Shown in pieces: positions 1-61,895 of a stretch of 64,000 nt of DNA. The notes under the pieces are model-generated. The model made no database searches and was not told the origin of the DNA. It saw only the letters and a list, made by a program, of their open reading frames with translations. The position numbers were made by a program, and so were the translations under genes. The first letter of the stretch is position 1. Each line of letters begins with the position of its first letter. The DNA is taken from NCBI GenBank assembly GCA_963794525.1, contig CAWCEC010000004.1:81222-145221 (forward strand), read 5' to 3'. The stretch is from an uncultured Chloroflexia bacterium. GTDB taxonomy: Bacteria > Chloroflexota > Limnocylindria > Limnocylindrales > CSP1-4.

Positions 1-2
1 CC

Positions 3-392
3 CGACATGCGGACATCTGGCAGTGGTTCGCCGGGACCGATCAGGTCGAGCTGTTCCGGCACAAGGACCAGGTGCTTCGCGAGCACTGCCGGGCCGAGGG
101 GCGGGACGAGACTCGGATCGAGCGGATGATCGGATGCAAGTTCATCCTGCGGTCATCCCCGGAGGAGGCAGCGCGCGTCGCCGACGAGCTCATCGCCGTC
201 CACAAGTGGCCGGCGTCGATCCGCGAGGTGGTCTGGGCGTCCACGCCGCAGCAGGTCGCCGACTGGCTCACCCCGTTCGTCGAGGCTGGGGCCGGATCGT
301 TCTGCCCACAGATCGGCTGGCCCTACGACCGCGAGACCATCGAGCGCTTGATCGGCGAGGTGAAACCCATCGTCGATGCGCGCACCGGCTGA
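3..392 (+). CDS. LLM-class (luciferase-like) flavin/F420-dependent oxidoreductase, C-terminal part (5' truncated by window)
   Basis: Frame open from the window edge: RHADIW...LREHCRAEGRD..IER...TPQQVADWL..FVEAGA, a typical LLM C-terminus. It resembles the C-terminus of the LLM at 45374-46303. Confidence 0.75.
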   Translation, partial: RHADIWQWFAGTDQVELFRHKDQVLREHCRAEGRDETRIERMIGCKFILRSSPEEAARVADELIAVHKWPASIREVVWASTPQQVADWLTPFVEAGAGSFCPQIGWPYDRETIERLIGEVKPIVDARTG

Positions 393-402
393 GGCGTCGG
401 AC

Positions 403-1770
403 ATGCGGAGCGTCTCGCTCGATCGGCTCGGGTTGCCGGCCTTCGCCTACGGCCCATTTCGGATCTTCTTCGCGTCCAGCCTGTTCGCGAACATCGGGAT
501 CTTCCTGTTCATGGCAGCGTTCGGCTGGTTCATCCAGACCGAGACCGGCTCGGCCGCGATGGTCGGCCTGGGCTCGGCGATCATGGGATTGCCCTGGCTG
601 TTGTTGATGCTGCATGCCGGGATGCTGACCGACCGGCTCGGCCCCCGACGGCTGATCGCCGGATCCTTCCTCGGTGGCGGCCTGGTGATGGCGCTCGTCG
701 CGTTCGTCGCGCTGTTGCCGGAGCCGTCGATCCCGATCGTGCTCGCCAGTGCGTTCCTGATGGGCATCCTGATGACGCTCGGAGCCCCCGGGTCGATCTC
801 GATCGTGGGCGACCTCGTGCCGCCGGCTGCGGTCTCGAGCGCGGTCGGCCTCAATTTCCTGCTGATCAACGGTGCGCGGATCGCCGGCGGGCTGGGCGCC
901 GGATGGCTCCTCGCCGACGGTCGTGAACCCGGCTGGACCATCCTCATCGGAGCGATCATGTTCGCCGCTCCGGGTGTGTTCATCTGGCGGCTGCATACCC
1001 GGGCCCCAGTCCCGACCAAACGACTTCCCGGCGGGGCCGCGCTGATCCGCCCGATCGTCGAGGCCGGCCGCCACGCGCTCCGCAATCCCACGCTGGGCAC
1101 GATCCTGCTGCTGTCGGCCGGTCCCGGCCTGATCGGGCTGCCCTACAACTTCCTCCTGCCCGTGGCCGCCGTGGAGCTCGGCATCGGTGCCGAGGGGCTC
1201 GGCCTCCTGCTGGTCGCCGTCGGTACGGGCGGCCTGCTGGCCGGGCTCGCGGCCGAGCACGCGCAGCGCCGGCTCGGCCACGGTCGGTCGATCCTCCTCG
1301 GTCTCGCGAGCGCGGCAGGCGGTCTCATCGTGTTCGGGCTCGGACCCCCGCTGCCGGTGTCGATCCTCTCGGTCGCGTTCGTCGGCGGAGGCTTCGTCGT
1401 CTACGCATCGGCCAGCCTGACCCTCGTCCAGGCGCTCGCGCCGCCGTCGCTCCGCGGACGCCTGACGTCGGTGTTCTCGCTGCTGTACTGGGGCCTGATG
1501 CCGGTCGGGGGACTCCTCGGTGGGCTGTCGGCCCAGGCGTTCACGGCGCGAACGACGATGCTCGCCGCTGGACTGGGACTGGTCCTGCTTGGAGTCGTTG
1601 CCATGATCCGCCGACCGCAGGTGCTTACGCTGGCCGTCTCCCGCGATGGGCTCCGGATGCACGGCGATCTCGCCGGCACCGGTCTCGCAGAGCCATGGCT
1701 CGGTGTCCACCTGGCTCCACCACCCGACGCCGATGTGGGCGTGGACCAGCGGGCGGCTGCGCGCCGATGA
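403..1770 (+). CDS. MFS transporter (MFS_3/EntS-like)
   Basis: About 12 hydrophobic segments; motif A-like GMLTDRLGPRR; C-half LVQALAPPSLRGR. ATG at 403, just after the upstream stop. Confidence 0.9.
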   Translation: MRSVSLDRLGLPAFAYGPFRIFFASSLFANIGIFLFMAAFGWFIQTETGSAAMVGLGSAIMGLPWLLLMLHAGMLTDRLGPRRLIAGSFLGGGLVMALVAFVALLPEPSIPIVLASAFLMGILMTLGAPGSISIVGDLVPPAAVSSAVGLNFLLINGARIAGGLGAGWLLADGREPGWTILIGAIMFAAPGVFIWRLHTRAPVPTKRLPGGAALIRPIVEAGRHALRNPTLGTILLLSAGPGLIGLPYNFLLPVAAVELGIGAEGLGLLLVAVGTGGLLAGLAAEHAQRRLGHGRSILLGLASAAGGLIVFGLGPPLPVSILSVAFVGGGFVVYASASLTLVQALAPPSLRGRLTSVFSLLYWGLMPVGGLLGGLSAQAFTARTTMLAAGLGLVLLGVVAMIRRPQVLTLAVSRDGLRMHGDLAGTGLAEPWLGVHLAPPPDADVGVDQRAAARR

Positions 1771-1777
1771 TGTGGCT

Positions 1778-2704
1778 ATGACTGATCAGCCGAACCTGTG
1801 GGATGCGCCGGCGGTCGAACCGCTCCACTTCATCGCCGACAGCCGCTGGGGTCAGGACGGGCTTCCGCCTGGTGCCTGGTTCGGTCGCGTCTCGGCGGTC
1901 GTCGCGGCACCGGACGGCAGGATCGTCGCGTTCCAACGGGGACCGGCCATCGATCCGGTGGTCCTGTTCGACCCGGATGGCCACTCGACGTCGAGCTGGG
2001 ACGCGAACATCGGTCTCGCCCACGGGATGCGGATCGATCGAGCGGGTCACCTGTGGCTGACCGATGCGGGCCGCCACCGCGTGCTCAAGACGACGATCGA
2101 CGGCGACGTCCTGCTCGAGATCGGGACGCCCGACGTGAGCGGCACCGATGAGCGGTCGTTCAACGCGCCGACCGACCTGGCGTTCGGGCACGACGGCTCG
2201 ATCTACGTGTCCGACGGTTACGGCAACTCGCGGGTCGTCCACTTGGACCCCGATGGTGGCTACATCGGGGCGTGGGGGCGACGCGGTTCCGCGCCCGGCG
2301 AGTTCGACACGCCCCATTCGATCGCGGTCGTGGCCGACGGCCGGGTGCTTGTCAGCGACCGGCACAACCACCGCATCCAGATCTTCGACGCTGACGGGAA
2401 CTACCAGACCGAATGGCGCCACCTCGGCGCGACCCAGTGCCTGACCTACGGGCCGGGCGGCGACCTGTGGGCGATGACCCATCGGTCGATCGACGAGATC
2501 CTGAGCTTCGACTCGATCGCGGGGCGGCTCGTGAGGCTGGATCCCGTGACTGGAGCGATCACCGGCTGGTTGCCGACGCCCGGTCACATGATGCACGCCA
2601 CCGCGGGTGGCGACCTGTGGGTCGCGAGCCTGTCGGGGACCGTGATCAGGTTCCGTCCGGGCTGGCGGGCGCAGGGTCCGGACGGCGTCCAGGAACGGTT
2701 CTAG
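1778..2704 (+). CDS. NHL-repeat peptidyl-alpha-hydroxyglycine alpha-amidating lyase (PAL)-family protein
   Basis: NHL repeats with AHGMRID, FNAPTDLAF, YVSDGYGNSR, PGEFDTPHSI, SDRHNHRIQIFD; no signal peptide. Confidence 0.85.
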   Translation: MTDQPNLWDAPAVEPLHFIADSRWGQDGLPPGAWFGRVSAVVAAPDGRIVAFQRGPAIDPVVLFDPDGHSTSSWDANIGLAHGMRIDRAGHLWLTDAGRHRVLKTTIDGDVLLEIGTPDVSGTDERSFNAPTDLAFGHDGSIYVSDGYGNSRVVHLDPDGGYIGAWGRRGSAPGEFDTPHSIAVVADGRVLVSDRHNHRIQIFDADGNYQTEWRHLGATQCLTYGPGGDLWAMTHRSIDEILSFDSIAGRLVRLDPVTGAITGWLPTPGHMMHATAGGDLWVASLSGTVIRFRPGWRAQGPDGVQERF

Positions 2705-2714
2705 CGGACGACCG

Positions 2715-3944
2715 ATGGCCAGTGCGGAGTTCGACCTGCCGGCCCAGCACCTGACGCTGCCGGTTGCGCCGACCACCACCTTCCCCGAGGTCGGCGAGAC
2801 CGAGGATGCGGTGGTCGCCCAGGTCGAGACCCGCCTCCGCGACAACCGGTTCCCGCCGGACCGGAACTTCGCCATCACCTACTCCGGGACGCCGCAGGCG
2901 ATCAGCCGGCGTGTCGAGTCGCTGGCGCAGGGCACGTTCTTCGTCGAGTGGGCCGACGAGACCGAGACCGGCACGCTCGGGTTCGAGCGCGAGGCGGTCC
3001 GGATGATGGGCGCCCTGCTCGGCGCGCCCGAAGCAGCCGGCGTGATCACGACGGGTGGCACGGAATCGAATATCGCAGCGCTCCGGCTGATGCGGAACCG
3101 GGCGCAGCGGTCGGCGCCCGAGGTCATCGCGCCGGTGACGATGCATTTTTCGTTCCGTCTCGGGGCCGAGCTGCTCGGGATCCGGCTGGTCGAGATCGAC
3201 GTCGGCGACGACTTCCGCCCGCGGATCGACGACGTGGCGCGGGCCATCACTCCGAACACGGTGGGGCTGGTCGCGTCCGCACCGGCCGGCAGTTTCGGGG
3301 TCATGGATCCCATCGAAGCGATCGCCGACCTTGCCGAACGGAAGGGGTTGCCGCTCCACGTGGACGCGGCGTTCGGCGGCTTCATCCTGCCGTTCATGCG
3401 CGACCTCGGCCACGAGGTGCCGCCGTTCGACTTCGCCCTGCCGGGCGTCACGACGATGATGACCGACGGCCATAAGCTCGGGCTGCTGCCGGTCGCCACG
3501 GGCTTCTTCCTGTCGCGCGACGCGCAGCTGTTCGAGACGATCCCGACGGAGCGGACGCTGATCCATACGACGTCGTCGACCAAGCCCGGCAGCCGCGCGG
3601 CCGCGGCCTGGGCCACGTTCCGGCACCTTGGTCGGGTCGGCTACGTCGCATCCACGGCACACGTGCTGGGCCTGCGGGACCGGATCGTCGCGGGCGTGAC
3701 GGCCATCCCGGGCATGGCGCTGATGGCGCCGCCGTTCATCACGGTCGTCGGTTTCACCTCGGAGACCATCGACCTGCGCCAGGTCCACGAGCAGCTGGCA
3801 AGCGACGGCTGGGGGCAGAGCTACGGCGAGCTGCGCGGACGGTCGTTCATCCGGTTGTCCATCCACCCGTCGCGGACGATCGAGGCGGCGAACGGGTTCA
3901 TTCGCGCGTTCGAGGGGGCGGCGCAGGACGCTCGCCGGCCCTGA
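2715..3944 (+). CDS. Group II PLP-dependent decarboxylase (MfnA tyrosine/aspartate decarboxylase-like)
   Basis: TTGGTESN, HFS, LHVDAAFGGF, DGHK (PLP lysine). Confidence 0.85.
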   Translation: MASAEFDLPAQHLTLPVAPTTTFPEVGETEDAVVAQVETRLRDNRFPPDRNFAITYSGTPQAISRRVESLAQGTFFVEWADETETGTLGFEREAVRMMGALLGAPEAAGVITTGGTESNIAALRLMRNRAQRSAPEVIAPVTMHFSFRLGAELLGIRLVEIDVGDDFRPRIDDVARAITPNTVGLVASAPAGSFGVMDPIEAIADLAERKGLPLHVDAAFGGFILPFMRDLGHEVPPFDFALPGVTTMMTDGHKLGLLPVATGFFLSRDAQLFETIPTERTLIHTTSSTKPGSRAAAAWATFRHLGRVGYVASTAHVLGLRDRIVAGVTAIPGMALMAPPFITVVGFTSETIDLRQVHEQLASDGWGQSYGELRGRSFIRLSIHPSRTIEAANGFIRAFEGAAQDARRP

Positions 3945-3945
3945 C

Positions 3946-6144
3946 GTGCTGCGGTTGCTCGGGTACACGAACCGGCTGAGCGTCGCGCCCGGCGAGACCA
4001 TCGACTTCCTGGTCAGCTGCGAGGGACCCGACTATGAGGCTCGCCTCGTCCGGTTGATCCACGGCGACGAGAACCCGGACGGGCCTGGCTTCAAGCAGGT
4101 CCTCGTGCCATCCGCCATCGACGGTCGGTACCCGGGCCGACACCAGGCGATCAGGAGCGGCTCCTACGTCGAGATCCCATTGCCGGCTGGGAGCAGCGGA
4201 GCGTCGCTGGCCTTCTCGGTGTACCTGATGCCGACGAACCCGGGTGCCGGCGTGCAGGTCATCGCCAGCATCGGCGACCCCGTTGGCGCGATGGGTTGGG
4301 GCCTCATCCTGGCGGAGGACGGCGCCGTCGAGCTCGTCGTCGGGTCGACCCGGATCTCAACGGGCGCTCCCGTCCATCGCTGGACCTGGTACCGGATCGA
4401 ATGCACGGTCGAAGGCGGTCGCGGCACCGTGCGCCAGACCCCGCTCCGCAGCCTGCCCAACGACCTGTCCGCCGGCGAAGGATCCGGTGAGATGGCGCTG
4501 CCGCCCCTCGATGGGCCGCTGATCCTCGGCGCGATGCGGACCGCGGACGGCATGGCCGCATGCCTCGACGGCAAGCTCGACGAACCGGTCCTGGCGGGCG
4601 TCGGCGCCTGGGACTTCGCTGCGGACATGTCGAGCGATCGGATCACCGACCGGTCGCCGACTGGGCGCCACGGATGGACGGTCAACACGCCGACCCGTGC
4701 GGTCACCGGTCATCGATTCGATGCGAGCGTCGCCGACTTCCACCTCGCGCCCGAGCAATGGTCGGCGATCCATCTCCACCGGGACGATCTCGACGACGCC
4801 GGCTGGGACGTGGGGTTCTCCCTGACCATCCCCGACGACCTGCCGAGCGGGGTCTACGCCGCCTGGCTTCGGTCCGCTGACGACGAGGACCATCTCCCGT
4901 TCACGGTGCGCCCGCCACGAGGGACCGCGCGATCACGGATCGCCGTCCTGATGTCGACGTTGACCTACACCGTCTACGCCAACTACACCGACCTGGGACC
5001 CGGTGCATGGCAGGAAGGCGCGACGAACACCTGGACGTCGGGCGCACCACACGCCGACCCGACCCTGTTCCGGGATGCCTACCGGTACATCGACGAGAAC
5101 GCGCTATACGGGACCTACGACCTGCACCTGGACGGCTCCGGCGTGGTGTACGGCTCGTTCCTCCGACCGATCCTCAACATGCGCCCGAAGTTCCGGTACC
5201 GGGTGTGGGCGGCGCCACCCCGCTTCCCGGCAGACCTCTACCTCGTCGACTGGCTCGATCACGAAGGCATCGAGGTCGACTTCATCACCGACCACGATCT
5301 CCAGGTCGAGGGCGCCGAACTGCTCGATCCGTACGCCGTCGTGGTCTCGAGCTCGCATCACGAGTACTGGAGCCGCCAGATGCTCGACGCGCTCGAGGGC
5401 TACCTGGGTGCCGGCGGCCGGTTCATGCTGCTGGGCGGCAACAGCCTGTTCGGCGTCGCCTCGTTCGATCCGGATCCTGCGAAGCCGCACCGGGTCGAGG
5501 TGCGGCGCTGGGGTGCGCCGTGGCCGTTCGAGGTGGCGCCCGCCGAACGCGTCCACTCGACGACCGGTGAGCTCGGCGGCACGTGGCGGAACCGCGGGCG
5601 CCCGCCGAACGGGATCGTCGCGGTCGGAACCAGCGCCGCCGGGTTCGACCGGGCGGTCCCGTACAAACGGATGCCCGACTCGCACGATCCGCGCGTGCGG
5701 TTCGTCTTCGAGGGGATCGGCGACGACCAACTGATCGGCGACCAGCCCAACCTCCAGACTCGATGGGGCGCTGCCGGCTACGAGGTCGACCGGTTCGATC
5801 ATGAGCTCGGGACGCCGGCGGCGGCCCTCCTACTGGCGTCATCGGTCGGCTTCAGCGACGGCTACCGGCCGATGCTCGACGAAGTCCTGTGGTTCATGCC
5901 GGGTCGGGACGGCAAGCGGACGGACGATCCCCAGCTCGACGGCGAGCCGCACCGGTTCGTGCGTTCGGACATGGCGTACCTCGAGTACCCGAACGGCGGC
6001 GCGGTGTTCTCGGTCGGCTCGATCGCGTGGCGCGGTGGGATCGCCTACAACGGGTACGACAACACGGTGGCGCGGGTGACAGGAAACGTATTGCGCCGGT
6101 TCGCCGAACGTCCGCGAGGTGCGTCGCCGAGCGATCCGGCGTGA
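3946..6144 (+). CDS. N,N-dimethylformamidase large (beta) subunit family protein
   Basis: N-terminal GY..RLSVAPGETIDF.VS...LVRLIHGD.NPDGPG, LamG-like insert, DDLDDAGW, SGVYA, TY..YAN, RPILNMRP, HHEYWS, GYEVD, GGAVFSVGSIAW. Confidence 0.9.
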   Translation: MLRLLGYTNRLSVAPGETIDFLVSCEGPDYEARLVRLIHGDENPDGPGFKQVLVPSAIDGRYPGRHQAIRSGSYVEIPLPAGSSGASLAFSVYLMPTNPGAGVQVIASIGDPVGAMGWGLILAEDGAVELVVGSTRISTGAPVHRWTWYRIECTVEGGRGTVRQTPLRSLPNDLSAGEGSGEMALPPLDGPLILGAMRTADGMAACLDGKLDEPVLAGVGAWDFAADMSSDRITDRSPTGRHGWTVNTPTRAVTGHRFDASVADFHLAPEQWSAIHLHRDDLDDAGWDVGFSLTIPDDLPSGVYAAWLRSADDEDHLPFTVRPPRGTARSRIAVLMSTLTYTVYANYTDLGPGAWQEGATNTWTSGAPHADPTLFRDAYRYIDENALYGTYDLHLDGSGVVYGSFLRPILNMRPKFRYRVWAAPPRFPADLYLVDWLDHEGIEVDFITDHDLQVEGAELLDPYAVVVSSSHHEYWSRQMLDALEGYLGAGGRFMLLGGNSLFGVASFDPDPAKPHRVEVRRWGAPWPFEVAPAERVHSTTGELGGTWRNRGRPPNGIVAVGTSAAGFDRAVPYKRMPDSHDPRVRFVFEGIGDDQLIGDQPNLQTRWGAAGYEVDRFDHELGTPAAALLLASSVGFSDGYRPMLDEVLWFMPGRDGKRTDDPQLDGEPHRFVRSDMAYLEYPNGGAVFSVGSIAWRGGIAYNGYDNTVARVTGNVLRRFAERPRGASPSDPA

Positions 6145-6146
6145 CC

Positions 6147-7277
6147 ATGCGGATCGAGGTCGAGGGCCACGCCACGGTCTGGGAAGCGTCGCCTGACGAT
6201 CCGGCGGGCCATGCCTGCGAGCCGCGGATCCTCCGCCGATCGACCGGCGACATCCTGCTCGCCCATCGCGTCGGCACGCGGCGCGAGAGCAACGACGGCC
6301 GGCCACATCTCCTGGAGAGCACCGATGGTGGGCACCGCTGGGCCACGCTCGGTCGTCCCCTCGACGGGCTCGCTGACCATGGCTGGGACCTGCGCGGCGC
6401 CGCGCTCGCCGAGCTGCCCTCGGGCGACCTGCTGACCGTGGTCGTCGCGCTCGACAAGTCCCTCGACCGGCCGACCTACAACCCGGAGACCGAAGGACTG
6501 GTCCCGGTCGCGAACCACATTGCGGTGTCCGCCGACGGGGGTCGAAGCTGGCGGCAGCTCGCCGATCTCGCGGGTGGCCCGGTGCCCCAGACCGCGTCGC
6601 AGGGCTTGCTCGTCCTGCCGGATGGCGACGTCCTGTGCACGTTCGAGACGTTCAAGGAGTACGACGAGCCCGGGACCTGGCGATACCTCGGCGGGCTGCT
6701 GCGCTCGACGGACGGCGGAAGGACCTGGGGCGACAGCGCGATCTCGGCGTCATCGGATCCGGATGGGGACCCGCACGACACCATGTGGTGGGATCCGCGG
6801 ATCGGCCGCCTGGCGTCGGGCGAGCTCGTCCAGTTCATGTACGCCTTCCGGCATCGGTCGCGAACGGAAGGTCCGGTGCACGTGGCATGGAGCCATGACG
6901 ACGGGCGGACGTGGTCGGCGCCGCTGTCAACGGGTCTGCCGGGCCAGGCGAGCTATCCGGTCCCGCTCGAGGACGGACGGCTCGTCCTCCTGCAACAGCG
7001 CCGTGGCGACGAGCAGTCGATCGTCGCCCTGGCGAGCGACGACGACGGCCGGACGTTCGACGCGGGTTCGGAAACGGTGGTGTACCGGCACGAGGCGACG
7101 TCGGCGCCCGGTGCCGACGGGTCCCTGAGCGCCGTCGACTACCTCATGTCGATGGACCGGTTCACCTTCGGCCACCCCTGCGGCGTGGCCACCGGCCCCG
7201 ACGAGGTCCTGGCCATCTGGTACGCGGGTGGGGGCACGCGAACCGCCATCCGGAGCGCCCGCCTGCGCATCAGGTAG
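6147..7277 (+). CDS. BNR/Asp-box beta-propeller (sialidase-fold) protein
   Basis: Five Asp-boxes (STDGGHRW, SADGGRSW, STDGGRTW, SHDDGRTW, SDDDGRTF); no signal peptide. Confidence 0.85.
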   Translation: MRIEVEGHATVWEASPDDPAGHACEPRILRRSTGDILLAHRVGTRRESNDGRPHLLESTDGGHRWATLGRPLDGLADHGWDLRGAALAELPSGDLLTVVVALDKSLDRPTYNPETEGLVPVANHIAVSADGGRSWRQLADLAGGPVPQTASQGLLVLPDGDVLCTFETFKEYDEPGTWRYLGGLLRSTDGGRTWGDSAISASSDPDGDPHDTMWWDPRIGRLASGELVQFMYAFRHRSRTEGPVHVAWSHDDGRTWSAPLSTGLPGQASYPVPLEDGRLVLLQQRRGDEQSIVALASDDDGRTFDAGSETVVYRHEATSAPGADGSLSAVDYLMSMDRFTFGHPCGVATGPDEVLAIWYAGGGTRTAIRSARLRIR

Positions 7278-7310: not shown

Positions 7311-8072
7311 TCAGTGGCCCGCGCGGCCACCCGAGATGTCGAAGACCGCACCGGTGGAGAACGACGCCTCGTCCGAGGCGAGCCAGGCGACCATCGCCGC
7401 GACCTCCTCGGGGCGCCCAAGCCGGCCGATGGGGTGGCGACGGCGAACCTCGTCGATCTCGTCCTCGGGCAGGTGGGACCAGTTCCGGGTCATGATCGAT
7501 CCGGGCGTGATCGCATTGACGAGGATCCCTCGAGGTGCGACCTCGAACGCGAGCGCCTTCGTCAGGCCGATCACGCCGGCCTTTGCCGCCGCATAGGCGA
7601 CCGGGTTGTGTTTGCCTTCCTTGCCGGCGATCGACGAGATGTTGACGATCCGGCCGTAGCCGCGCTCCAGCATCATCGGCAGGACCGCCCGACAGCCGTG
7701 GAAGACGCCGGTCAGGTCGACGTCGATCGTGCGCTGCCAGGTCTCGAGCGGCATCTCCCAGGTCGGGATCAACTCCTCGCCGATCCCGGCGTTGTTGACC
7801 AGGATGTCGATCCGGCCCGCCCACACCGAGACCGCTTCCACCATGGCCTCGACCGATGGGTAGGAGGTCACATCCACGGCCACCGCGAGCGCGACATCAC
7901 CGGACGGGTCGAGCCGGCGGGCGAGCGCTTCGGCGTCATCGAGGGCGAGGTCCGTGACGACGACCCGCAGCCCATCGCGCACGAGTCGCTCGCACATGGC
8001 CGTCCCCAGGGCGCCGGCGGCACCCGTGACGATCGCCACGCGCCTGTCCTCCCCCTGATCCCGCTCCTGCAT
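7311..8072 (-). CDS. SDR family NAD(P)-dependent oxidoreductase
   Basis: TGAAGALG, NNAG, catalytic S...YAAAK, NAITPG, GRLGRPEEVA. Confidence 0.93.
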   Translation of the reverse strand: MQERDQGEDRRVAIVTGAAGALGTAMCERLVRDGLRVVVTDLALDDAEALARRLDPSGDVALAVAVDVTSYPSVEAMVEAVSVWAGRIDILVNNAGIGEELIPTWEMPLETWQRTIDVDLTGVFHGCRAVLPMMLERGYGRIVNISSIAGKEGKHNPVAYAAAKAGVIGLTKALAFEVAPRGILVNAITPGSIMTRNWSHLPEDEIDEVRRRHPIGRLGRPEEVAAMVAWLASDEASFSTGAVFDISGGRAGH

Positions 8073-8137
8073 CCCGCGGAGTGTAAGTCACACTGGACAG
8101 GAGGCGCCCAGTTGCAGTGCTATCCTACCGCTCGCCC

Positions 8138-9250
8138 ATGATCGACCTGCGGTCCGACACCGTGACGCTGCCATCGCCCGAGATGCGGCGCGCGATGGCG
8201 AACGCGGAACTGGGCGACGACGTGTTCGGCGACGACCCGACGGTGCGCGCACTCGAGGAACGCGCCGCCGAGCTGCTCGGCACCGAGGCCGGCCTCCTCG
8301 TGACCAGCGGGACCATGGGCAACCTGGTCGGGCTGATGGCCCACGTGCCGCGTGGCGGCGAGATCATCGGGCCCGCCGAGATCCACACCTTCTCGAGCGA
8401 GGCGGCCGGACATGCCGTCGTGGTCGGCGCGTCGGTCCGCGGCATCCCACCCGCCGATGACGGCACGATCGACCCGGCGGCGATCCGCTCGGCCGTCCGT
8501 GACCCGACGGACGTCCACGAGCCCATCACCGCGCTGATCACGCTCGAGAACACCCATTCGTTGTCGATGGGCCAGCCGCTCACCCCCGCCTACACCAAGA
8601 CGATCGCGTCGGTCGCGCGCGAGATCGGCGTGCCGCTGTTCATCGACGGGGCGCGCCTGTTCAACGCGGCGGTCGCGCTCGGGGTGCCGGGGCGCGACCT
8701 GGTGCCGCCGGGAGCGTCCGCGACGTTCTGCCTGTCCAAGAGCCTGGCCTGCCCCGTGGGCTCGCTGGTGGTCGGCGACGCCGGAGTCATCGCGAGGGCG
8801 CGTCGCGCCCGCAAGCTCGTGGGCGGCGGTATGCGCCAGGCCGGGGTCATCGCGGCGGCCGGTCTGGTCGCCCTCCGGGACGGACCCGCCGGGATGATCG
8901 AGCGGCTCGCCGATGATCACGCCAACGCCCGCCGGCTCGCGGATGCCCTGGCATCCATGCCGGGCGTCACCCGCCTCGACCCGACCAGGGTCAGGACGAA
9001 CTTCGTGCTCTTCGGCCTCGGCGCCCAGTCGTGGCCTGACGACACGGTGGCGCGAGCAGCCGTCCTCCGACAACGGGCCGAGTTCCTGGCCGCGCTCGCC
9101 GACCGCGGGGTCCGGATGATCGAGTACCCGAAGGGCATGGTCCGGGCGATGCCGCACTACGGCGTCGAGTCAGGCGACATCGAGCGCGCCATCACCGCGA
9201 CCCGCGCCACGCTCGCCGACGTGGGCCTGTCGAGCGCCGTTCCCGCCTGA
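8138..9250 (+). CDS. ltaE: Low-specificity L-threonine aldolase
   Basis: IDLRSDTVT, GDDVFGDDPTV, SGTMGN, LENTH, DGARLFNA, CLSK, GGGMRQAG. Confidence 0.9.
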   Translation: MIDLRSDTVTLPSPEMRRAMANAELGDDVFGDDPTVRALEERAAELLGTEAGLLVTSGTMGNLVGLMAHVPRGGEIIGPAEIHTFSSEAAGHAVVVGASVRGIPPADDGTIDPAAIRSAVRDPTDVHEPITALITLENTHSLSMGQPLTPAYTKTIASVAREIGVPLFIDGARLFNAAVALGVPGRDLVPPGASATFCLSKSLACPVGSLVVGDAGVIARARRARKLVGGGMRQAGVIAAAGLVALRDGPAGMIERLADDHANARRLADALASMPGVTRLDPTRVRTNFVLFGLGAQSWPDDTVARAAVLRQRAEFLAALADRGVRMIEYPKGMVRAMPHYGVESGDIERAITATRATLADVGLSSAVPA

Positions 9251-9275: not shown

Positions 9276-9686
9276 CTAGTCGTACCGCCATTGCAGGCGG
9301 GTGGGGGTCACGACGATCAGGACGCGATCCTCCTTGATCTCCTCCCAGTGTCGCTGTGACGCCTCTTCCGTCGGCTCGTACTTGCGGATGAGGTCGAGCG
9401 TCGTGTCCTTGACGTCGCCTTCGATCACCTCGGCGGTGCCGAAGACCTGGACGTAGTTCTCCCGTCGCTTGCCCGCGTCGATGCACAGCGTGATCCGCGG
9501 GTCGCGCTTGAGGTTGCGGACCTTGACGGTCCAGTCGAGCGTGCTGATCCAGAACCGCTCGCCGTCCCACCAGTACCAGTTGGGCGTCAGCTGGGGCGTG
9601 CCGTCGGGCTGGATGGTGGCCACGATCGCGTGGACCTGGGTCCGGAGGAACGCTTCCTTCTCCGGAGTCAGCTCGGCGTCCGTCAC
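9276..9686 (-). CDS. PPOX-class F420-dependent oxidoreductase
   Basis: VATIQPDGTPQLTP.W, KVRNLKRDPRITL; 136 aa; GTG start overlaps the upstream stop. Confidence 0.85.
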   Translation of the reverse strand: MTDAELTPEKEAFLRTQVHAIVATIQPDGTPQLTPNWYWWDGERFWISTLDWTVKVRNLKRDPRITLCIDAGKRRENYVQVFGTAEVIEGDVKDTTLDLIRKYEPTEEASQRHWEEIKEDRVLIVVTPTRLQWRYD

Positions 9687-12107
9687 GCTCCACCGCCGAG
9701 GTCGAGGGCCAGGATCGCGGCCTCCACGATGTGGCCGGCATCGATCCCGCTCGATGCGTACAGGTCGGGGATGGCGCCGGATTGTCCGAACGTGTCGACC
9801 CCGAGCGGCACCACGGGAGCCCCGAATACGCCACCGACGAAGCTGAGGGCGTGCGAGGACGCGTCGGCGACGGTGACGATCGGCGCCCGGCGTTCGTCAG
9901 GCGGGATCAACGTCGCGAGATGGCCGACGTCGTCCGGCCGGCCGGTCCGCAGCGCCTGGAGCCGCCCGCCATGCTGCCCGGCGGCAAGCCGCTCGGCCGA
10001 GGTCACCACGATCAGGTTGGCGGCGATCTCCTCCCGATGCAGGATCCGGACGGCCTCGATCGCCTCCGGCACGATCGAGCCCGCCGCGACGACCTCGACG
10101 GTGGGGCTGCCGGCCGGCAGATCCGCGGAGGCCGCCTCGAGGAGCCGGTAGCCACCCGCGAGGACCGCGTCACGCCAGCCGTCGAGGCCCAGCCGCTCCT
10201 CGATCGGCGCGGCCAGCGCCTGGTCGATGGGGCGCGTGCCGAGCCGCAGGTAGGTGGCGAACCCATCGTGTGGATCGAGACATCCCCGGATGCCCTCGAG
10301 GATCGTCCAGACGACCTCCCGGGCGAACACGGGCTCATAGCCACGCAGCCCGGGCAGCTCGATCCCGAGGGACGGCGTCACCGTGGACTGGTGGGCGCCT
10401 CCCTCCGGCGCGAGGGTCACGCCCGAGGGCGTCCCGACCAGGATGAACCGGGACCGGACGTAGAGCGCGTAGATCAGCGCATCCAGGCCGCGGGCGATGA
10501 ACGGGTCGTAGACCGAGCCGATGGGCACGAGCCGTTCGCCGAACAGCTCGCCGGTCAGGCCGAACTGGCTCAGCCACATGAACAGGTTCATCTCGCTGAT
10601 GCCGAGCTCGATGTGGCGTCCGGTGGGACCCAGGGTCCAATCGAGCGGGCGCTTCTCCTCGGCGAGGTCGGGGCCCGTGTCCGGTGCGAACACCCCGGCA
10701 CGATTGATCCAGCCTCCAAGGTTCGTGGAGACGGCCACGTCCGGTGCCGCGGTGACCAGCCGTGGACCCGTCTCGGCGTCCCGGGCGAGAGCCGCCAGGG
10801 TGTCCCCGAACGTCTGCTGCGTACTCGTTCGGGCCGGGATCCGCACATCGGGCGCGGCCAGGACGGGCATGACCGATGGTGCGATGTCGCGCGACGGGTC
10901 GTCGTATCCGAGCTCCTGCCGGCGCCGCTGCGCCAGCCGTCCTTCGGGCGAGCCCTCGGCGGAATCCCGCCCACGGGTCGGTCGGGTCGGCCCCGAGCGG
11001 CTCGCTCAACGCATCGATCTGTTCCGCGCGGAGGAGGGCGGAATGGTTGACGCTGTCGCCGGCGAAGGGCAGCCGCCAGCCCTTGATGGTGTACGCGAAC
11101 AGCACCGTGGGCCTGCCTCGCTCGCGATCGGCCGCACGCAGCGCTCGATCGAGCACGTCCAGGTCGTGACCGCCCAGGTCGGCGAGCAGCCCCGGGAGCT
11201 CGGGATCGGGCACGTCCGCGACCACACGCGCCAGGGCGTCCCGTCGCGATGGCGCCGCTCCGTCCACCAGGCGGGTCCGCGCCTCGTCGCCGGGCCGCCT
11301 GATCAGCACCTGGTATTCCTCGTTCGGCATGTCGTCGATCCGCTCGCGAAGCGCGTCGCCATCGGGCCGTGCGAAGTGCGCCTCCAGCCGGCGTCCGTAC
11401 TTGGCCTCGATCGCATGCCAGCCCGCCGCCGCGAACATCGCCTCCACCCGACGGATGCGGATCCCCGGAACGACCCGATCGAGACTCTGGCGATTCAGGT
11501 CGACGATCATCGTCACGTTCCCGAGCTCGCCCAGGCCCTCCTCGAGGATCGCCTCCCAGACGTTGCCTTCGTCAAGCTCCGCATCGCCGACCAGGGCCAC
11601 GAACCGCCGATCGGGCTGGCTCGCGACGCTCTCGCCGAAATGCGACCGCAGGTAGCGATCGGCCAGGGCGGCGAACATCGGGGCGACCGCCCCGAGGCCC
11701 ACGGAGCCCGTGGAGAAGTCGACCGGATCGGGATCCTTGGTCCGCGACGGATACGACTGCAGGCCGCCGAAGTCACGCAGCCGAAGGAGCATCGACGGGT
11801 CCAGGTTGCCGAGCAGGTACTGGATCGCGTGGTAGGCCGGCGACGCGTGCGGCTTCACCGCGACCAGGTCGCCGGCTCGCAGCCAGCGGAAGTAGAGCGC
11901 GGTCAGGATCGACACGACCGATGCGCTCGACGCCTGGTGCCCGCCGACCTTGATCCCATCGCGGTTCGGGCGGACGTTGTTGGCCTCGTGGATCATCCGG
12001 ATCGCCAGCCACAACACGCGGCGCGCGATCGCGTCCAGGGCCGGATCGTCGGTCCCACTGGCGGGCGATCGTGTCGGCATGTCGGCGACGGCCACTGGCT
12101 GGGTCAC
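9683..12107 (-). CDS. Pyruvate dehydrogenase E1 (AceE-type, transketolase-like ThDP enzyme); frameshifted near 10960
   Basis: KVGGHQASSAS, LQSYP, STGSVGLG, GDAELDEG, LNRQSLD in one frame; ELGISEMN, YDPF, EGGAHQS, LGVDTFGQSG in another. Confidence 0.85.
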
Positions 12108-12153
12108 TCCCTCTGCGCGACGTGGAGGGTCGTCGCATCGTTCGTCCGGTAAT

Positions 12154-12171
12154 TCGGGACGACAGTCCCGA
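12154..12171. promoter_or_regulatory. Inverted repeat TCGGGAC-N4-GTCCCGA, candidate IclR operator
   Basis: Perfect 7-bp arms in the divergent gap between the E1-like gene and the IclR gene, next to an AT-rich -10-like stretch (CATACT). Confidence 0.5.
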
Positions 12172-12193
12172 TATCCTGATACCATACTGTGCC

Positions 12194-13030
12194 ATGACCG
12201 GCATCGCGGGGTCAACGGCGGACGGACGGCGGGGCGACGCTGCCAGGGGACCGATGGCTCGCTGGGTGCGCGTGCTCGAAGCGTTCGCCGAGCAGGGCGA
12301 ATGGGGCGTCCGCGATCTCGCCCGGTCGAGCGGGATCCCGCGCAGCGCCACCCATCGGATCCTCCACGACATGGCCGGCCTCGGCCTGCTGGCCAACACG
12401 GACGAACCCGGTCGCTTCCGGGTCGGACCGGACCTGGCGCGGATCGGCAGTGGTGTGGCGGCCCACCTCGAGGTGCAGCGCGTCGCCCGGCCGATCCTCG
12501 AGGCGACCGCGGCGGCCATCGGCGAGACGATCGTGCTCGCCGTGTACGACCCGCAGCGTCGCCGATTCTCGGCCGTCGATGCCGTCGAGACCGACCACCC
12601 GATCCGCTACCTGTGGGAGTCGCTCCGGGACTGGAGCGAGCTCCATCTCGGCTCGTCGGGCAAGGGGATCCTGGCGTTCCTGCCGTCCGAGGAGCGGGAC
12701 GCGATCATCGATCGCCTGCCCGATCCGATCCCCGGCCGGCGCCCGATCTCCAAGGCTCGCCTGCGCCGTGAGCTCGATGCGGCCCGACGGCGTGGGTACG
12801 TGGTGAGCCACGGCGAGCGCTACGACGGCGCCGTCGGCATCTCCGCGCCGATCCGCGACGCTCGCGGCCGGATCGTCGGCGACCTCATCGCGACCTGGCC
12901 GGACAACCGGACCAGCGCTGCCAAGGAGCGCCGCGCCGGGTCGACCGTCCGCGAGGCGGCCGACGAGCTCTCGCGTCGGCTTGGTTGGGACGACGGGCGC
13001 AGCGCGGCGCAGCCGCGCCCGCGGCCGTGA
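12194..13030 (+). CDS. IclR family transcriptional regulator
   Basis: HTH GVRDLARSSGIPRSATHRIL; effector domain GETIVL, LHLGSSGKGILAF, GISAPIRD. Confidence 0.93.
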   Translation: MTGIAGSTADGRRGDAARGPMARWVRVLEAFAEQGEWGVRDLARSSGIPRSATHRILHDMAGLGLLANTDEPGRFRVGPDLARIGSGVAAHLEVQRVARPILEATAAAIGETIVLAVYDPQRRRFSAVDAVETDHPIRYLWESLRDWSELHLGSSGKGILAFLPSEERDAIIDRLPDPIPGRRPISKARLRRELDAARRRGYVVSHGERYDGAVGISAPIRDARGRIVGDLIATWPDNRTSAAKERRAGSTVREAADELSRRLGWDDGRSAAQPRPRP

Positions 13031-49925: not shown

Positions 49926-51072
49926 TTGCGCATCGTCGACCGCTCGGTCCTCAGCGCGGCTGTACCGGGAACCTCCCGGGCCGCCGCGACCTTCCCGACA
50001 TTCACCGTCCTGGCGGACGGCAGCCTGCTCGCGACCTACAGCATCGGATCGACCAAGGACAGCGACGACCTGACGGTCGAGCTTCGGCGGTCGATCGACG
50101 GCGGGGCGACGTGGGACGAGCCGCGCGCCCCGTTCGAGACGACCCTGGACGGGCCGGCGCGGCTCGCTCAAGTTCGCCCCGATCACGAGGCTCGATGGCG
50201 ATCGGCTGATCATCGTGGCGTTGTGGATCGATCGCGAGGCGTTCCCGGGTCAGCCGCTCTTCAACCCCGAGACCGAGGGGTGCCTGCCGATGGCGATCCT
50301 CGTCGCCGACTCGGCCGACGCCGGGGAGACCTGGTCATCGTGGCGACGGGTGGCGATGCCGGCCGACGTCGGTCCGCCGAGCCTGACCAACGCGATCGTC
50401 CGCTTCCCGAGCGGCCGTCTCCTGCTGAGCGTCGAGACCAACAAGGAGTACCTCGACACCTCACGCTGGTTCCAGCGTGTCGTCCACCTCTGGTCGGATG
50501 ACGACGGCGTCACGTGGTCGGCGCCGACGACGGTCGTGGCCGACCCGACCGGTCGGATCGGGACCTGGGACCAACGAGGGGCCGTGGCGGCCGATGGGCG
50601 CCTCGTCAGCTTCGCCTGGATCTACGACTTCGAGGCGGTCGCCTACCTGGACATCCAGCGGCGGATCAGCGCCGACGAGGGCCGTTCCTTCGGGGAGCCG
50701 GTCGACCTCGGCTTCGCCGACCAGCCTGGCCACCCGGCCATCCTGCCGGACGGCCGCGTCGTGCTCGCCTGGGTCGATCGGTTCGGCTCAGGCTCGATCC
50801 GGGCTCGCCTCGCAGCCTCGACCGAGGCACCGTTCGAGCCGGACACCGAGATCGTCCTGTTCGATGCCGCCGCCGATGCGACGAGCGCCGCCCGGACCGG
50901 GTCGTCGGCGACCGCCACGACAGGCGATGCGCTGGAGCAGATGCAGACCTGGTCGTACGGTCTGTGTTACGCCGACGCATTACCGGATGGCGACGTCGGG
51001 GTCGTGCACTATGCCCCGGGAACCGCCGGCGGGATCGAGATCCGCTGGATCCGCCTGGCGGTCGATGGCTGA
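49926..51072 (+). CDS. BNR/Asp-box sialidase-fold protein; frameshifted near 50165
   Basis: SIDGGATW, SADAGETW, SDDDGVTW, SADEGRSF; NPETEG and WDQR shared with the paralogs. Confidence 0.85.
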
Positions 51073-60771: not shown

Positions 60772-61895
60772 GGCCGGATGCGCGCCCAGCGCGCACTCCG
60801 GGCGTCACCGCTGCCACCGTAGAACGTGACGAGCACCTGCCCGTCGGCCAGCAGGGCGCCGCGGGCATGCCCGAACTGCCATGCCCCCATGTCGTTCCAG
60901 AACTCGCCCTGCGCTCGCGGACCGCCCGCACCCGGTTCCGTGCCGGCGTCGCTTGCCCAGACGACCACCTCGTCGGCCGGATCCCAGGTCCGCCCGAAGT
61001 CGTGGCTCAGGGCGGCGCGGATGCCGGGTGGGTCGGCCCGGTGCGAGTAGACCGCCAGGAGCCGGTCACCACCCAGCGCGATGGGCTGGCAATGCTGGCC
61101 GGCCAGACCGGTGCCGACGGGCGACGTCCAGGTGCGACCATCGGCCGTCCCCCACGCGACATGGATGTCGACGTCCTGACCGGCCGCCGGATCGTGGGTC
61201 CAGAACATGTTGACCAGTCGGCCATCCGTCGGGTGCGTGTCCAGGCGCTGGTCCCAGTAGAACAGGGCATCGTCCGGATGGTGGGCGACGAGGACGTCCG
61301 TCTGCCATGTCGCACCCTCGTCGGTCGACAGGCGCAGCCAGGCGGCCGGCTTCCCGGGCGCCGGATCGTCGCGCTCCTTCCAGTGCTCGAACGGCTGGGC
61401 GAGCGTCCCATCCGACAGGCGCAGCAGCGGGCCCGTGGTCGACGCCCCGGGATGCGGACCGAGGTCGATGCGTCGACGCTGCGGCCAGCTCCGGCCGCCG
61501 TCGGTCGAGACCAGGTGGTATGCCCGCATCCCCAGGAGCCCTTGCGTCTCGGGGTGGACCCACGGCTGCGTCGGGTCGGTCCGGTCCGTCCAGAGCACCG
61601 ACGCGGTGAGCTCGCCGGGCGTCAGCTCGGCGATGTACCAGCCCCGGGTCTCACCGGGCCAGTCCTCCCACACCCGCTCGGACAGGCCCAGGAACCGAAG
61701 CTCCCACGTGTCACCCGCGTCGACCGACGCGAAGATGGCGGTCTGGCCGTCGGGACCCTCGCGATCGGTCCCGAGGCGGCACGTGACCAGCACCGAATCG
61801 TCCGCCAGCCGGATGGCGGACGTCGCCGATGCCGAACGCAAGTTGATCGGGGCCGTCTGGGCGTCCCAGATCACGCCGGAGGCCAGGACGTCCAT
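60768..61895 (-). CDS. BNR/Asp-box sialidase-fold protein
   Basis: SVDAGDTW, STDGGRSW, STDEGATW, TADGRTW, SHDFGRTW; HPETQG, WDQR, MGAWQFGH; GAGGA RBS. Confidence 0.87.
   Translation of the reverse strand: MDVLASGVIWDAQTAPINLRSASATSAIRLADDSVLVTCRLGTDREGPDGQTAIFASVDAGDTWELRFLGLSERVWEDWPGETRGWYIAELTPGELTASVLWTDRTDPTQPWVHPETQGLLGMRAYHLVSTDGGRSWPQRRRIDLGPHPGASTTGPLLRLSDGTLAQPFEHWKERDDPAPGKPAAWLRLSTDEGATWQTDVLVAHHPDDALFYWDQRLDTHPTDGRLVNMFWTHDPAAGQDVDIHVAWGTADGRTWTSPVGTGLAGQHCQPIALGGDRLLAVYSHRADPPGIRAALSHDFGRTWDPADEVVVWASDAGTEPGAGGPRAQGEFWNDMGAWQFGHARGALLADGQVLVTFYGGSGDARSARWARIRP

Follow-up and report, generated by a model that had tools for sequence, protein, structure and literature searches.

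The window analysed here is a stretch of 64,000 nucleotides from an uncultured soil Chloroflexia bacterium (G000:C4:81222-145221), belonging to a genome of 3.17 Mb in 6 contigs that is 80% complete and has ca 70% G+C. At its start (1..7277) lie six plus-strand genes, which encode the C-terminal part of a luciferase-like oxidoreductase (LLM3), a transporter of the major facilitator superfamily (MFS), an NHL beta-propeller resembling peptidyl-alpha-hydroxyglycine alpha-amidating lyase (PAL), a pyridoxal-phosphate (PLP) enzyme, an amidase homologous to the large subunit of dimethylformamidase (DMFase), and a BNR beta-propeller (Table 1). The module formed by the amidase and the PLP enzyme is the main subject of this work. 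An earlier, sequence-only reading had described the six genes as co-oriented with gaps of about 1-10 bp, and both the row and its coordinates are confirmed. With start codons picked by eye, the spacings in row order are 10, 7, 10, 1 and 2 bases, the first becoming a 17-base overlap if the MFS gene starts at 376.

The window start is not a contig end, and inspection of the upstream contig shows that the row, although correct in the six genes listed, is longer than was first described. It is part of a same-strand array of ca 17 kb consisting of an Opp-type ATP-binding cassette (ABC) importer, three F420-type LLMs, a Gfo/Idh/MocA gene, and the genes for the MFS transporter, the NHL protein, the PLP enzyme, the amidase and the BNR protein. 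The upstream part thus contains, on the plus strand, the five importer genes of Opp/Dpp type (SBP_bac_5, two permeases and two ATPases), two further LLMs and the Gfo/Idh/MocA gene, while an amidohydrolase upstream of the window is read divergently.

Table 1. Genes at the start of the window (positions counted from the first base of the window).
Feature	Position	Strand	Remarks
LLM3, C-terminal part of an F420-type luciferase-like oxidoreductase	1..392	+	Gene start ca -559; stop at 392
MFS transporter (MFS_3/MFS_1, distantly EntS-like)	376 or 403..1770	+	Pfam MFS_3 111 bits, MFS_1 109 bits
Six-bladed NHL beta-propeller, PAL-like, apparently cytoplasmic	1778..2704	+	Pfam NHL 72.7 bits
PLP enzyme, group II decarboxylase / sphingosine-1-phosphate-lyase fold	2715..3944	+	Pyridoxal_deC (PF00282) 64.9 bits, cut-off 27
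DMFA2_C protein, single-subunit DMFase large-subunit homologue, predicted mononuclear-iron amidase	3946..6144	+	DMFA2_C (PF20254) 262.9 bits, cut-off 27
BNR_2 beta-propeller, sialidase fold, apparently cytoplasmic	6147..7277	+	BNR_2 57.7 bits
Short-chain dehydrogenase, convergent	7311..8072	-	adh_short_C2 210 bits
GntG-family PLP-dependent threonine-aldolase-like enzyme	8117..9250	+	NF041359 386 bits, cut-off 230

We begin with the amidase, whose gene is the sole DMFA2_C gene of the genome and which, judged by its sequence, is a mononuclear-iron amidase of the DMFase large-subunit family. It is similar over its full length, including the C-terminal catalytic domain, to DmfA2 of Paracoccus sp. 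DMF (PDB 6LVB; E 3e-130, residues 4-156 and 188-721 aligned). The available excerpt of the DMFase study gives Y399, Y440 and E521 as the iron ligands (a 2-Tyr-1-carboxylate site) and H519 and N547 as essential (PMC7686228); in the printed alignment these pair with Y344, Y391, E473, H471 and N499 of the window protein. Across 18 homologues four of the five residues are invariant and N499 is nearly so. The earlier description of the protein as DMFase-beta-like is therefore borne out by a full-length match in which all five active-site residues are kept. A word-based protein search returned 3549 relatives.

The second relative of known structure is an N-acetyl-(R)-beta-phenylalanine acylase (PDB 8HUY/8I59/8I5A, the activity being taken from the PDB title), with which the window amidase aligns (8huy) in one continuous stretch, residues 1-727, with E 4.8e-94, at a lower score than with DMFase (319 vs 439 bits). 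Since these entries are deposited as chains of one protein, the DMFase family includes single-protein N-acetyl-amino-acid acylases. According to the same excerpt (PMC7686228), the DMFase large subunit alone was inactive and needed the small (15 kDa) subunit for activity, and at the locus, to which the search was confined, no small-subunit gene lies beside the amidase: there is a 1-bp gap to the PLP gene, a 2-bp gap to the BNR gene, and no small open reading frame between. On this ground an identity as alpha2beta2 N,N-dimethylformamidase was rejected. The window gene differs from DmfA2 also in that its upstream neighbour, 1 bp away, is a PLP enzyme that is conserved across phyla, and in that its contig, 664 kb long, belongs to a Chloroflexota genome. 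The synthetic solvent N,N-dimethylformamide (DMF) is unlikely to be its natural substrate. The sequence-only reading had furthermore proposed a formamide as the substrate, a suggestion that we do not retain: nothing points to a formamide substrate, and the family also holds the N-acetyl-beta-phenylalanine acylase.

We now consider the PLP enzyme, a fold-type I protein of the Pyridoxal_deC family like both the sphingosine-1-phosphate (S1P) lyase StSPL (PDB 3MAD) and the MfnA tyrosine/aspartate decarboxylase (PDB 3F9T). Its K254 aligns with the Lys of the '..HK..' motif of the StSPL chain, which we take to be the PLP-binding motif, with its Lys as the PLP lysine. The enzyme had been assigned as an MfnA-like decarboxylase, and this assignment is not borne out by the scores. 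Against the MfnA model TIGR03812 it reaches 236.8 bits, under the equivalog cut-off of 299.4, and it scores higher against the S1P lyases (185 bits, E 1.6e-53 for 3mad) than against MfnA (106 bits, E 1.6e-29 for 3f9t). It differs from the former in length, with 409 aa vs ca 500-550 residues in the SPL chains listed. Outside the window, at G000:C4:180416-181294 (-), the genome encodes another PLP enzyme with this fold (38% identity), which is not beside an amidase.

The conservation of the two genes was followed in 79 loci obtained by an amidase-profile search, where an orthologue was required to have a coverage of at least 60% and E <= 1e-10 and to lie within 10 kb. In 58 of the 79 loci the amidase has such a PLP-enzyme orthologue nearby, a count that is descriptive and not one of independent cases, since the loci were chosen by amidase similarity and many are kin. 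In all 58 the two genes are co-oriented, and in 22 the gap is below 150 bp. Where at least 5 kb is available on both sides, the pair is found in 45 of 58 loci, divided into 44/51 at an amidase identity of at least 48% and 1/7 below 48%. By record title it occurs in Chloroflexota (44/54), Spirochaetia (7/8), Acidobacteriota (4/10), Actinomycetota (2/3) and Opitutaceae (1/1), i.e. under five phylum-level labels, with none in Proteobacteria (0/1) and cyanobacteria (0/2).

The neighbours of the pair vary from locus to locus. A class-III (omega-type) aminotransferase is found in 14 of the 79 loci, Gfo/Idh/MocA in 18 and MR_MLE in 10, and the annotated representative loci contain amidohydrolases, PhyH, aldehyde dehydrogenase, a PucR-type regulator, Gfo/Idh/MocA and parts of ABC importers (an inner-membrane permease in L036, a solute-binding protein in L054). 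In 26 of the 79 loci, which belong to another Chloroflexota group, a protein of ca 529 aa without a Pfam or NCBIfam family stands beside the pair, mostly between the amidase and the PLP gene (family of L046:12253-13839). It has an Asp-box-like motif, and its nearest Atlas clusters are auto-named GH32 but have no common Pfam, so that this name is a lead only. An hhalign comparison of this protein with the BNR and NHL families gave no relation (E 0.16 and 0.23).

The pair is also present in a culturable actinomycete, on the chromosome of Dactylosporangium fulvum (L036, 3300-17300), inside a one-strand row of an ABC permease, a kinase-aminotransferase fusion (APH plus class III), a PucR regulator, the PLP enzyme, the amidase, a short-chain dehydrogenase (SDR), an amidohydrolase, a D-serine-dehydratase-like enzyme and an aldehyde dehydrogenase. 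This locus would be a good experimental system.

The wider block has a much narrower distribution than the pair. All six genes recur in 7 other loci, and the NHL, PLP enzyme, amidase and BNR genes together in 8, all with Chloroflexota titles and from close relatives. Because of this recurrence the six-gene arrangement is more than chance, and the combination is not confined to one genome, which the sequence-only reading had named as the outcome that would speak against it. As a unit, however, the combination holds only within these 7-8 loci. What is shared beyond them is a core of PLP enzyme and amidase, and the LLM, NHL, MFS and BNR genes are clade-specific; LLM and NHL are absent from the remaining 50 loci that keep the pair. 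NHL-like genes with 37-39% identity do occur near the amidase in two Acidobacteriota loci (L024 and L025).

The usual order in the relatives is LLM, Gfo, LLM, MFS, NHL, PIG-L deacetylase, PLP enzyme, amidase, then RHH and MR_MLE on the other strand, and BNR; in one relative the order is rearranged. The PIG-L/LmbE-type deacetylase in the NHL/PLP interval and the opposite-strand MR_MLE in the amidase/BNR interval (L010:12159-13211, L013:8027-8938) do not occur at the corresponding positions of the window. Among 24 genomes of the genus, the same three (G019, G022 and G023) have orthologues of the amidase, the PLP enzyme and the BNR protein; an orthologue of the NHL protein is found in these and in G002, which is fragmented into 540 contigs. 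The block behaves as a unit in the genus, being either present or absent. Sixteen genomes of the neighbouring family gave none of the four orthologues. Weaker matches, at the level of paralogues, were obtained for NHL in G021 and G024 (37-39%) and for the PLP enzyme in G002, G019 and G023 (33-38%), and an 88-residue match to the amidase in G016.

The other proteins of the row can be characterised as follows. The identification of the NHL protein as PAL-like is backed by its fold. Its structural model (pLDDT 90) has the PAL catalytic core of PAM as its closest solved fold, with 3fw0 ranked first of 48,161 chains (Z 31.7, rmsd 3.2, 276/329 residues, 30% identity), followed by the NHL domain of TRIM2 (Z 29.3). 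It also matches PAL (3fvz) in a single stretch of sequence (E 1.8e-28, and 1.1e-45 by profile search), unlike the TRIM-type NHL domains, which give repeat-wise matches only. The rank of PAL in sequence searches depends on the query: 22nd with the N-terminal 147 residues of the NHL protein, 6th with the family profile and 20th with a distant Acidobacteriota homologue. Among 8 homologues H82, Y148, H180 and R195 do not vary. H82 and H180 are at offsets fitting the three-His zinc site that we take PAL to have, and a third His, near residue 271, is shared by the 6 close sequences alone. PAL uses a Tyr-Arg catalytic dyad, according to the available part of a source that deals with the animal peptide-amidating enzyme (PMC10303134). 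The spacing of Y148 and R195 is 47 residues vs 52 in this dyad, where the pairing comes from alignment offsets and not from a residue-level alignment.

In contrast to the PAL of PAM, the window protein is bacterial and stand-alone, and it appears to be cytoplasmic. By eye, with no predictor run, the N-termini of the NHL protein, the amidase and the BNR protein show no signal-peptide-like start, for which reason a secreted sialidase and a secreted PAL were rejected as candidates. A PHM-type copper monooxygenase (PF01082) gave no match in the 80%-complete genome, but the control genomes gave none either, so this is no evidence of absence. The genome has a second PAL-like NHL gene (38% identity), at G000:C3:465369-466016 (-), which is not beside an amidase.

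For the BNR protein, the model (pLDDT 78) has a sialidase fold (Foldseek E ca 1e-13, TM ca 0.6). The best match is Dfer_1899 (PDB 5HX0), a protein of unknown function, followed by the GH33 sialidases, with which it shares the sialidase-type six-bladed propeller and the BNR/Asp-box repeats; its Atlas neighbours are BNR_2 clusters. The identity to the GH33 sialidases is 13-18%, and the likeness is one of fold. Two BNR-type paralogues are located elsewhere in the window, at 60774..61877 (-) with 34% and at 50161..51036 (+) with 32% identity.

The LLM assignment holds at the level of the superfamily (Pfam Bac_luciferase, 114-166 bits). The nearest subfamilies are F420-dependent oxidoreductases, below their cut-offs, and the NtaA/DmoA-type FMN-dependent monooxygenase subfamily is not the best match: an intact orthologue of LLM3 in a relative is nearest to TIGR03560 with 189.2 bits vs a cut-off of 231.4, and the second LLM reaches 182.4 bits vs the same cut-off. 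In the window, moreover, the gene is frameshifted. The MFS transporter, finally, has 74 bits vs a cut-off of 324 for EntS.

What is observed at the locus, namely the gene order, the family memberships, the kept catalytic residues and the conservation of the pair, suggests a class of substrate, an order of reactions and a direction, catabolism rather than synthesis. The reading that we prefer, and to which we give about an even chance of being correct, is that the row is a cytoplasmic catabolic cluster for an N-acyl compound, built around the conserved module of amidase and PLP enzyme. In the first step, the iron amidase would hydrolyse the amide (N-acyl) bond of an imported compound, freeing an amine or amino acid. 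In the second, the adjacent PLP enzyme would decarboxylate this product or cleave a C-C bond in it. PLP enzymes form an external aldimine with a free primary amine, and since the amidase makes such an amine, deacylation followed by decarboxylation or C-C cleavage would be the simplest mechanism. The aminotransferase and aldehyde dehydrogenase neighbours in other loci favour an amine as the product.

The remaining genes can then be viewed as lineage-specific additions, namely the PAL-like NHL lyase, the sialidase-fold propeller, the F420-type oxidoreductases, Gfo/Idh/MocA, the MFS transporter and the Opp-type importer, joined in close relatives by the PIG-L deacetylase and a sugar-acid-dehydratase-like enolase. 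These accessory proteins could serve to import a larger N-acylated substrate, possibly sugar- or peptide-linked, to trim it or to oxidise it further. As to the natural function, one can speculate that the widespread DMFase relatives without a small subunit constitute, with their fixed PLP partner, an unrecognised two-enzyme route, in which the N-acyl group of an amino alcohol, an amino sugar or a sphingoid-like base is removed by the iron amidase and the carbon chain is then split by the S1P-lyase-type enzyme. For this more specific proposal we see a small chance.

Several points weigh against the preferred reading. The PLP enzyme, under the MfnA cut-off and with higher scores against the S1P lyases, may be either a decarboxylase or a lyase. 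The pair is incomplete in 21 of the 79 loci, which have no PLP partner (five of these have a flank below 1.2 kb on at least one side), and the counts for the others share the lack of independence mentioned above. The inactivity of the DMFase large subunit alone, as stated in the excerpt of PMC7686228, also counts here, the small-subunit gene not being beside the amidase. The transporter is of the MFS_3/EntS-like type, and the NCBIfam relatives that it matches far below cut-off, EntS, Tap and Mef(A), are pumps for efflux or export, so that biosynthesis and export would fit this gene as well. Finally, the upstream genes, including the adjoining LLM, are frameshifted, which may reflect partial decay of the array in this genome or a poor assembly.

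This last point deserves some detail. The 7.3 kb from the window start onward are free of frame breaks, unlike the ca 10 kb upstream (window -9800..0; L003:5200-15000), where the importer, the two LLMs and the Gfo/Idh/MocA gene are broken by several frameshifts, every few hundred bases. In LLM3 the frame changes between about -23 and +6. Since its start lies ca 559 bases upstream of the window and the frame changes near the window start, the open reading frame 3..392 is only the C-terminal piece of the protein, and this piece has 21.9 bits in Pfam, under the cut-off of 27.9. The LLM3 orthologues in relatives are in one frame, and the MFS, NHL, PLP enzyme, amidase and BNR genes of the window each match their relatives end to end in one frame.

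Eleven sequencing runs were also screened, each of which contains a small share of the words of the stretch (0.05-0.10) and none at least half. Four were aligned, and they yielded pieces from relatives, 88-95% alike and not of the same strain; regions without cover are uninformative. The base at window -22 is missing in the soil short-read contigs of relatives in 3 of the 4 aligned runs, and at several of the upstream frame breaks these contigs have single-base insertions or deletions relative to the assembly. As they come from relatives and not from the same strain, the soil runs cannot judge the frameshifts as errors. The upstream frame breaks are either uneven consensus quality and assembly errors or gene decay. 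The soil-metagenome contigs that are 88-95% alike to L003:5000-20000 come from three studies (coded P1-P3).

We have considered four other explanations of the row. The sialidase fold of the BNR protein, together with the closeness of the PLP enzyme to the S1P lyases rather than MfnA, would be compatible with the salvage of amino sugars or glycosides. Here, an N-acylated amino sugar or amino polyol would be set free by the propellers and deacylated by the amidase, together with PIG-L in the relatives; the PLP enzyme would cleave the amino polyol in a retro-aldol type reaction rather than decarboxylate it, and Gfo/Idh/MocA, a sugar-acid-type dehydratase and aldolases would finish the carbon skeleton. 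The PIG-L deacetylase between the NHL and PLP genes of the relatives fits this scheme, as do the 529-aa protein with its GH32-named neighbours (a lead only), the iolG-like Gfo/Idh/MocA and the enolase nearest to sugar-acid dehydratases (both below cut-offs), and the IclR, Gfo, MR_MLE and HpcH aldolase genes at 12-21 kb. However, all glycosidase-like proteins are only distantly related to enzymes of known activity (13-18% identity), the propellers are not the same in different clades and show no relation in hhalign comparisons, and the omega-aminotransferase neighbours in 14 loci are better explained by the amine product of a decarboxylase. We thus regard salvage as unlikely.

Another option is close to the route put forward in the sequence-only reading. 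In this case, the LLM would oxidise the carbon next to the amide nitrogen, the carbinolamide so formed would be split by the PAL-like lyase, giving a primary amide plus an aldehyde or glyoxylate, hydrolysis of that amide or formamide would fall to the DMFase-like enzyme, and the decarboxylase would take the amino-acid product. The scheme makes use of PAL being the closest solved fold of the NHL protein and of the invariant candidate residues Y148 and R195, which would correspond to the Tyr-Arg dyad in the excerpted PAL source (PMC10303134), and the primary amide that PAL produces would suit the amidase. The LLM, NHL, PLP enzyme and amidase genes stay together in 7-8 loci despite a changed order, and the NHL-like genes near the amidase in L024 and L025 point in the same direction. 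The proposal is nevertheless quite unlikely in our view: 50 other loci keep the pair without LLM and NHL, the LLMs score best with F420-dependent subfamilies and not with FMN monooxygenases, the adjoining LLM is frameshifted here, the match of the PAL residues comes from alignment offsets, and there is no sign of a formamide.

The export-type MFS transporter is the main basis for the third explanation, in which the cluster would synthesise a small, secreted metabolite containing an amine: the decarboxylase would make the amine, tailoring enzymes would modify it and the transporter would export it. Group II decarboxylases open several siderophore pathways, and the PLP enzyme has a weak RhbB-type match of 63.5 bits; the patchy, accessory-island-like distribution of the block could be understood in the same way. 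On the other hand, among the annotated genes of the locus, its flanks and the relatives there is no synthetase, ligase, acyltransferase, non-ribosomal peptide synthetase or polyketide synthase gene, and the invariant hydrolytic amidase, the ABC importers, the IclR/PucR regulators, and the aldehyde dehydrogenase and aminotransferases of other lineages indicate breakdown. This makes biosynthesis very unlikely.

That the protein is a true dimethylformamidase degrading DMF or similar solvents, with unrelated neighbours, is scarcely credible even though, among solved structures, it matches the Paracoccus DMFase large subunit best and retains the active site, given the small-subunit gene that is not beside it and without which the large subunit is inactive (excerpt of PMC7686228), the presence of that subunit in only 41 genomes or metagenome-assembled genomes (available part of the preprint 10.1101/2021.03.18.435917), the synthetic nature of DMF (excerpt of 10.1101/2019.12.17.879908) and the conservation of the PLP pairing across phyla.

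Returning to the catabolic module of amidase and PLP enzyme, all of its parts come from known families; the novelty lies in the conserved module and in the PAL-like and sialidase-fold proteins that accompany it. A search of one literature library found no paper on the amidase-PLP gene pair, and the same library gave none on the N-acetyl-(R)-beta-phenylalanine acylase. DMFase acts on a man-made solvent, yet its genes are widespread. Genes that encode the large subunit, the small subunit or both are present in 924 of 20,762 complete genomes, ca 4.5% of complete prokaryotic genomes, in the available part of the preprint (10.1101/2021.03.18.435917). This raises the question of the natural role of the family. 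That the PLP partner is fixed and co-oriented in five phylum-level groups provides a handle on the natural role of the DMFase relatives, and a stand-alone bacterial protein with PAL as its closest solved fold provides a second one. If the two-enzyme route proposed above is true, the deacylase-plus-lyase pathway would give the DMFase family a natural substrate class and explain the recurrent glycosidase-like propellers nearby. If the pair only serves, as other catabolic modules do, to break down N-acetyl amino acids, this would be a useful annotation, but unsurprising.

Beyond the BNR gene, the convergent SDR gene is found at the equivalent place in 9 close loci, and the GntG-family aldolase gene that follows is syntenic in relatives. 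Further on are a transketolase-like gene, IclR, Gfo/Idh/MocA, MR_MLE, an FAD oxidoreductase and HpcH aldolase, those for IclR, Gfo, MR_MLE and HpcH being the genes at 12-21 kb mentioned above. The transketolase / E1-like gene, 9683..12215 (-), consists of two overlapping open reading frames, one for the N-terminal domain (10335..12215) and one for the middle and C-terminal domains (9683..10870). Since the relatives carry a single frame of 864-877 aa, a frameshift is likely in this gene.

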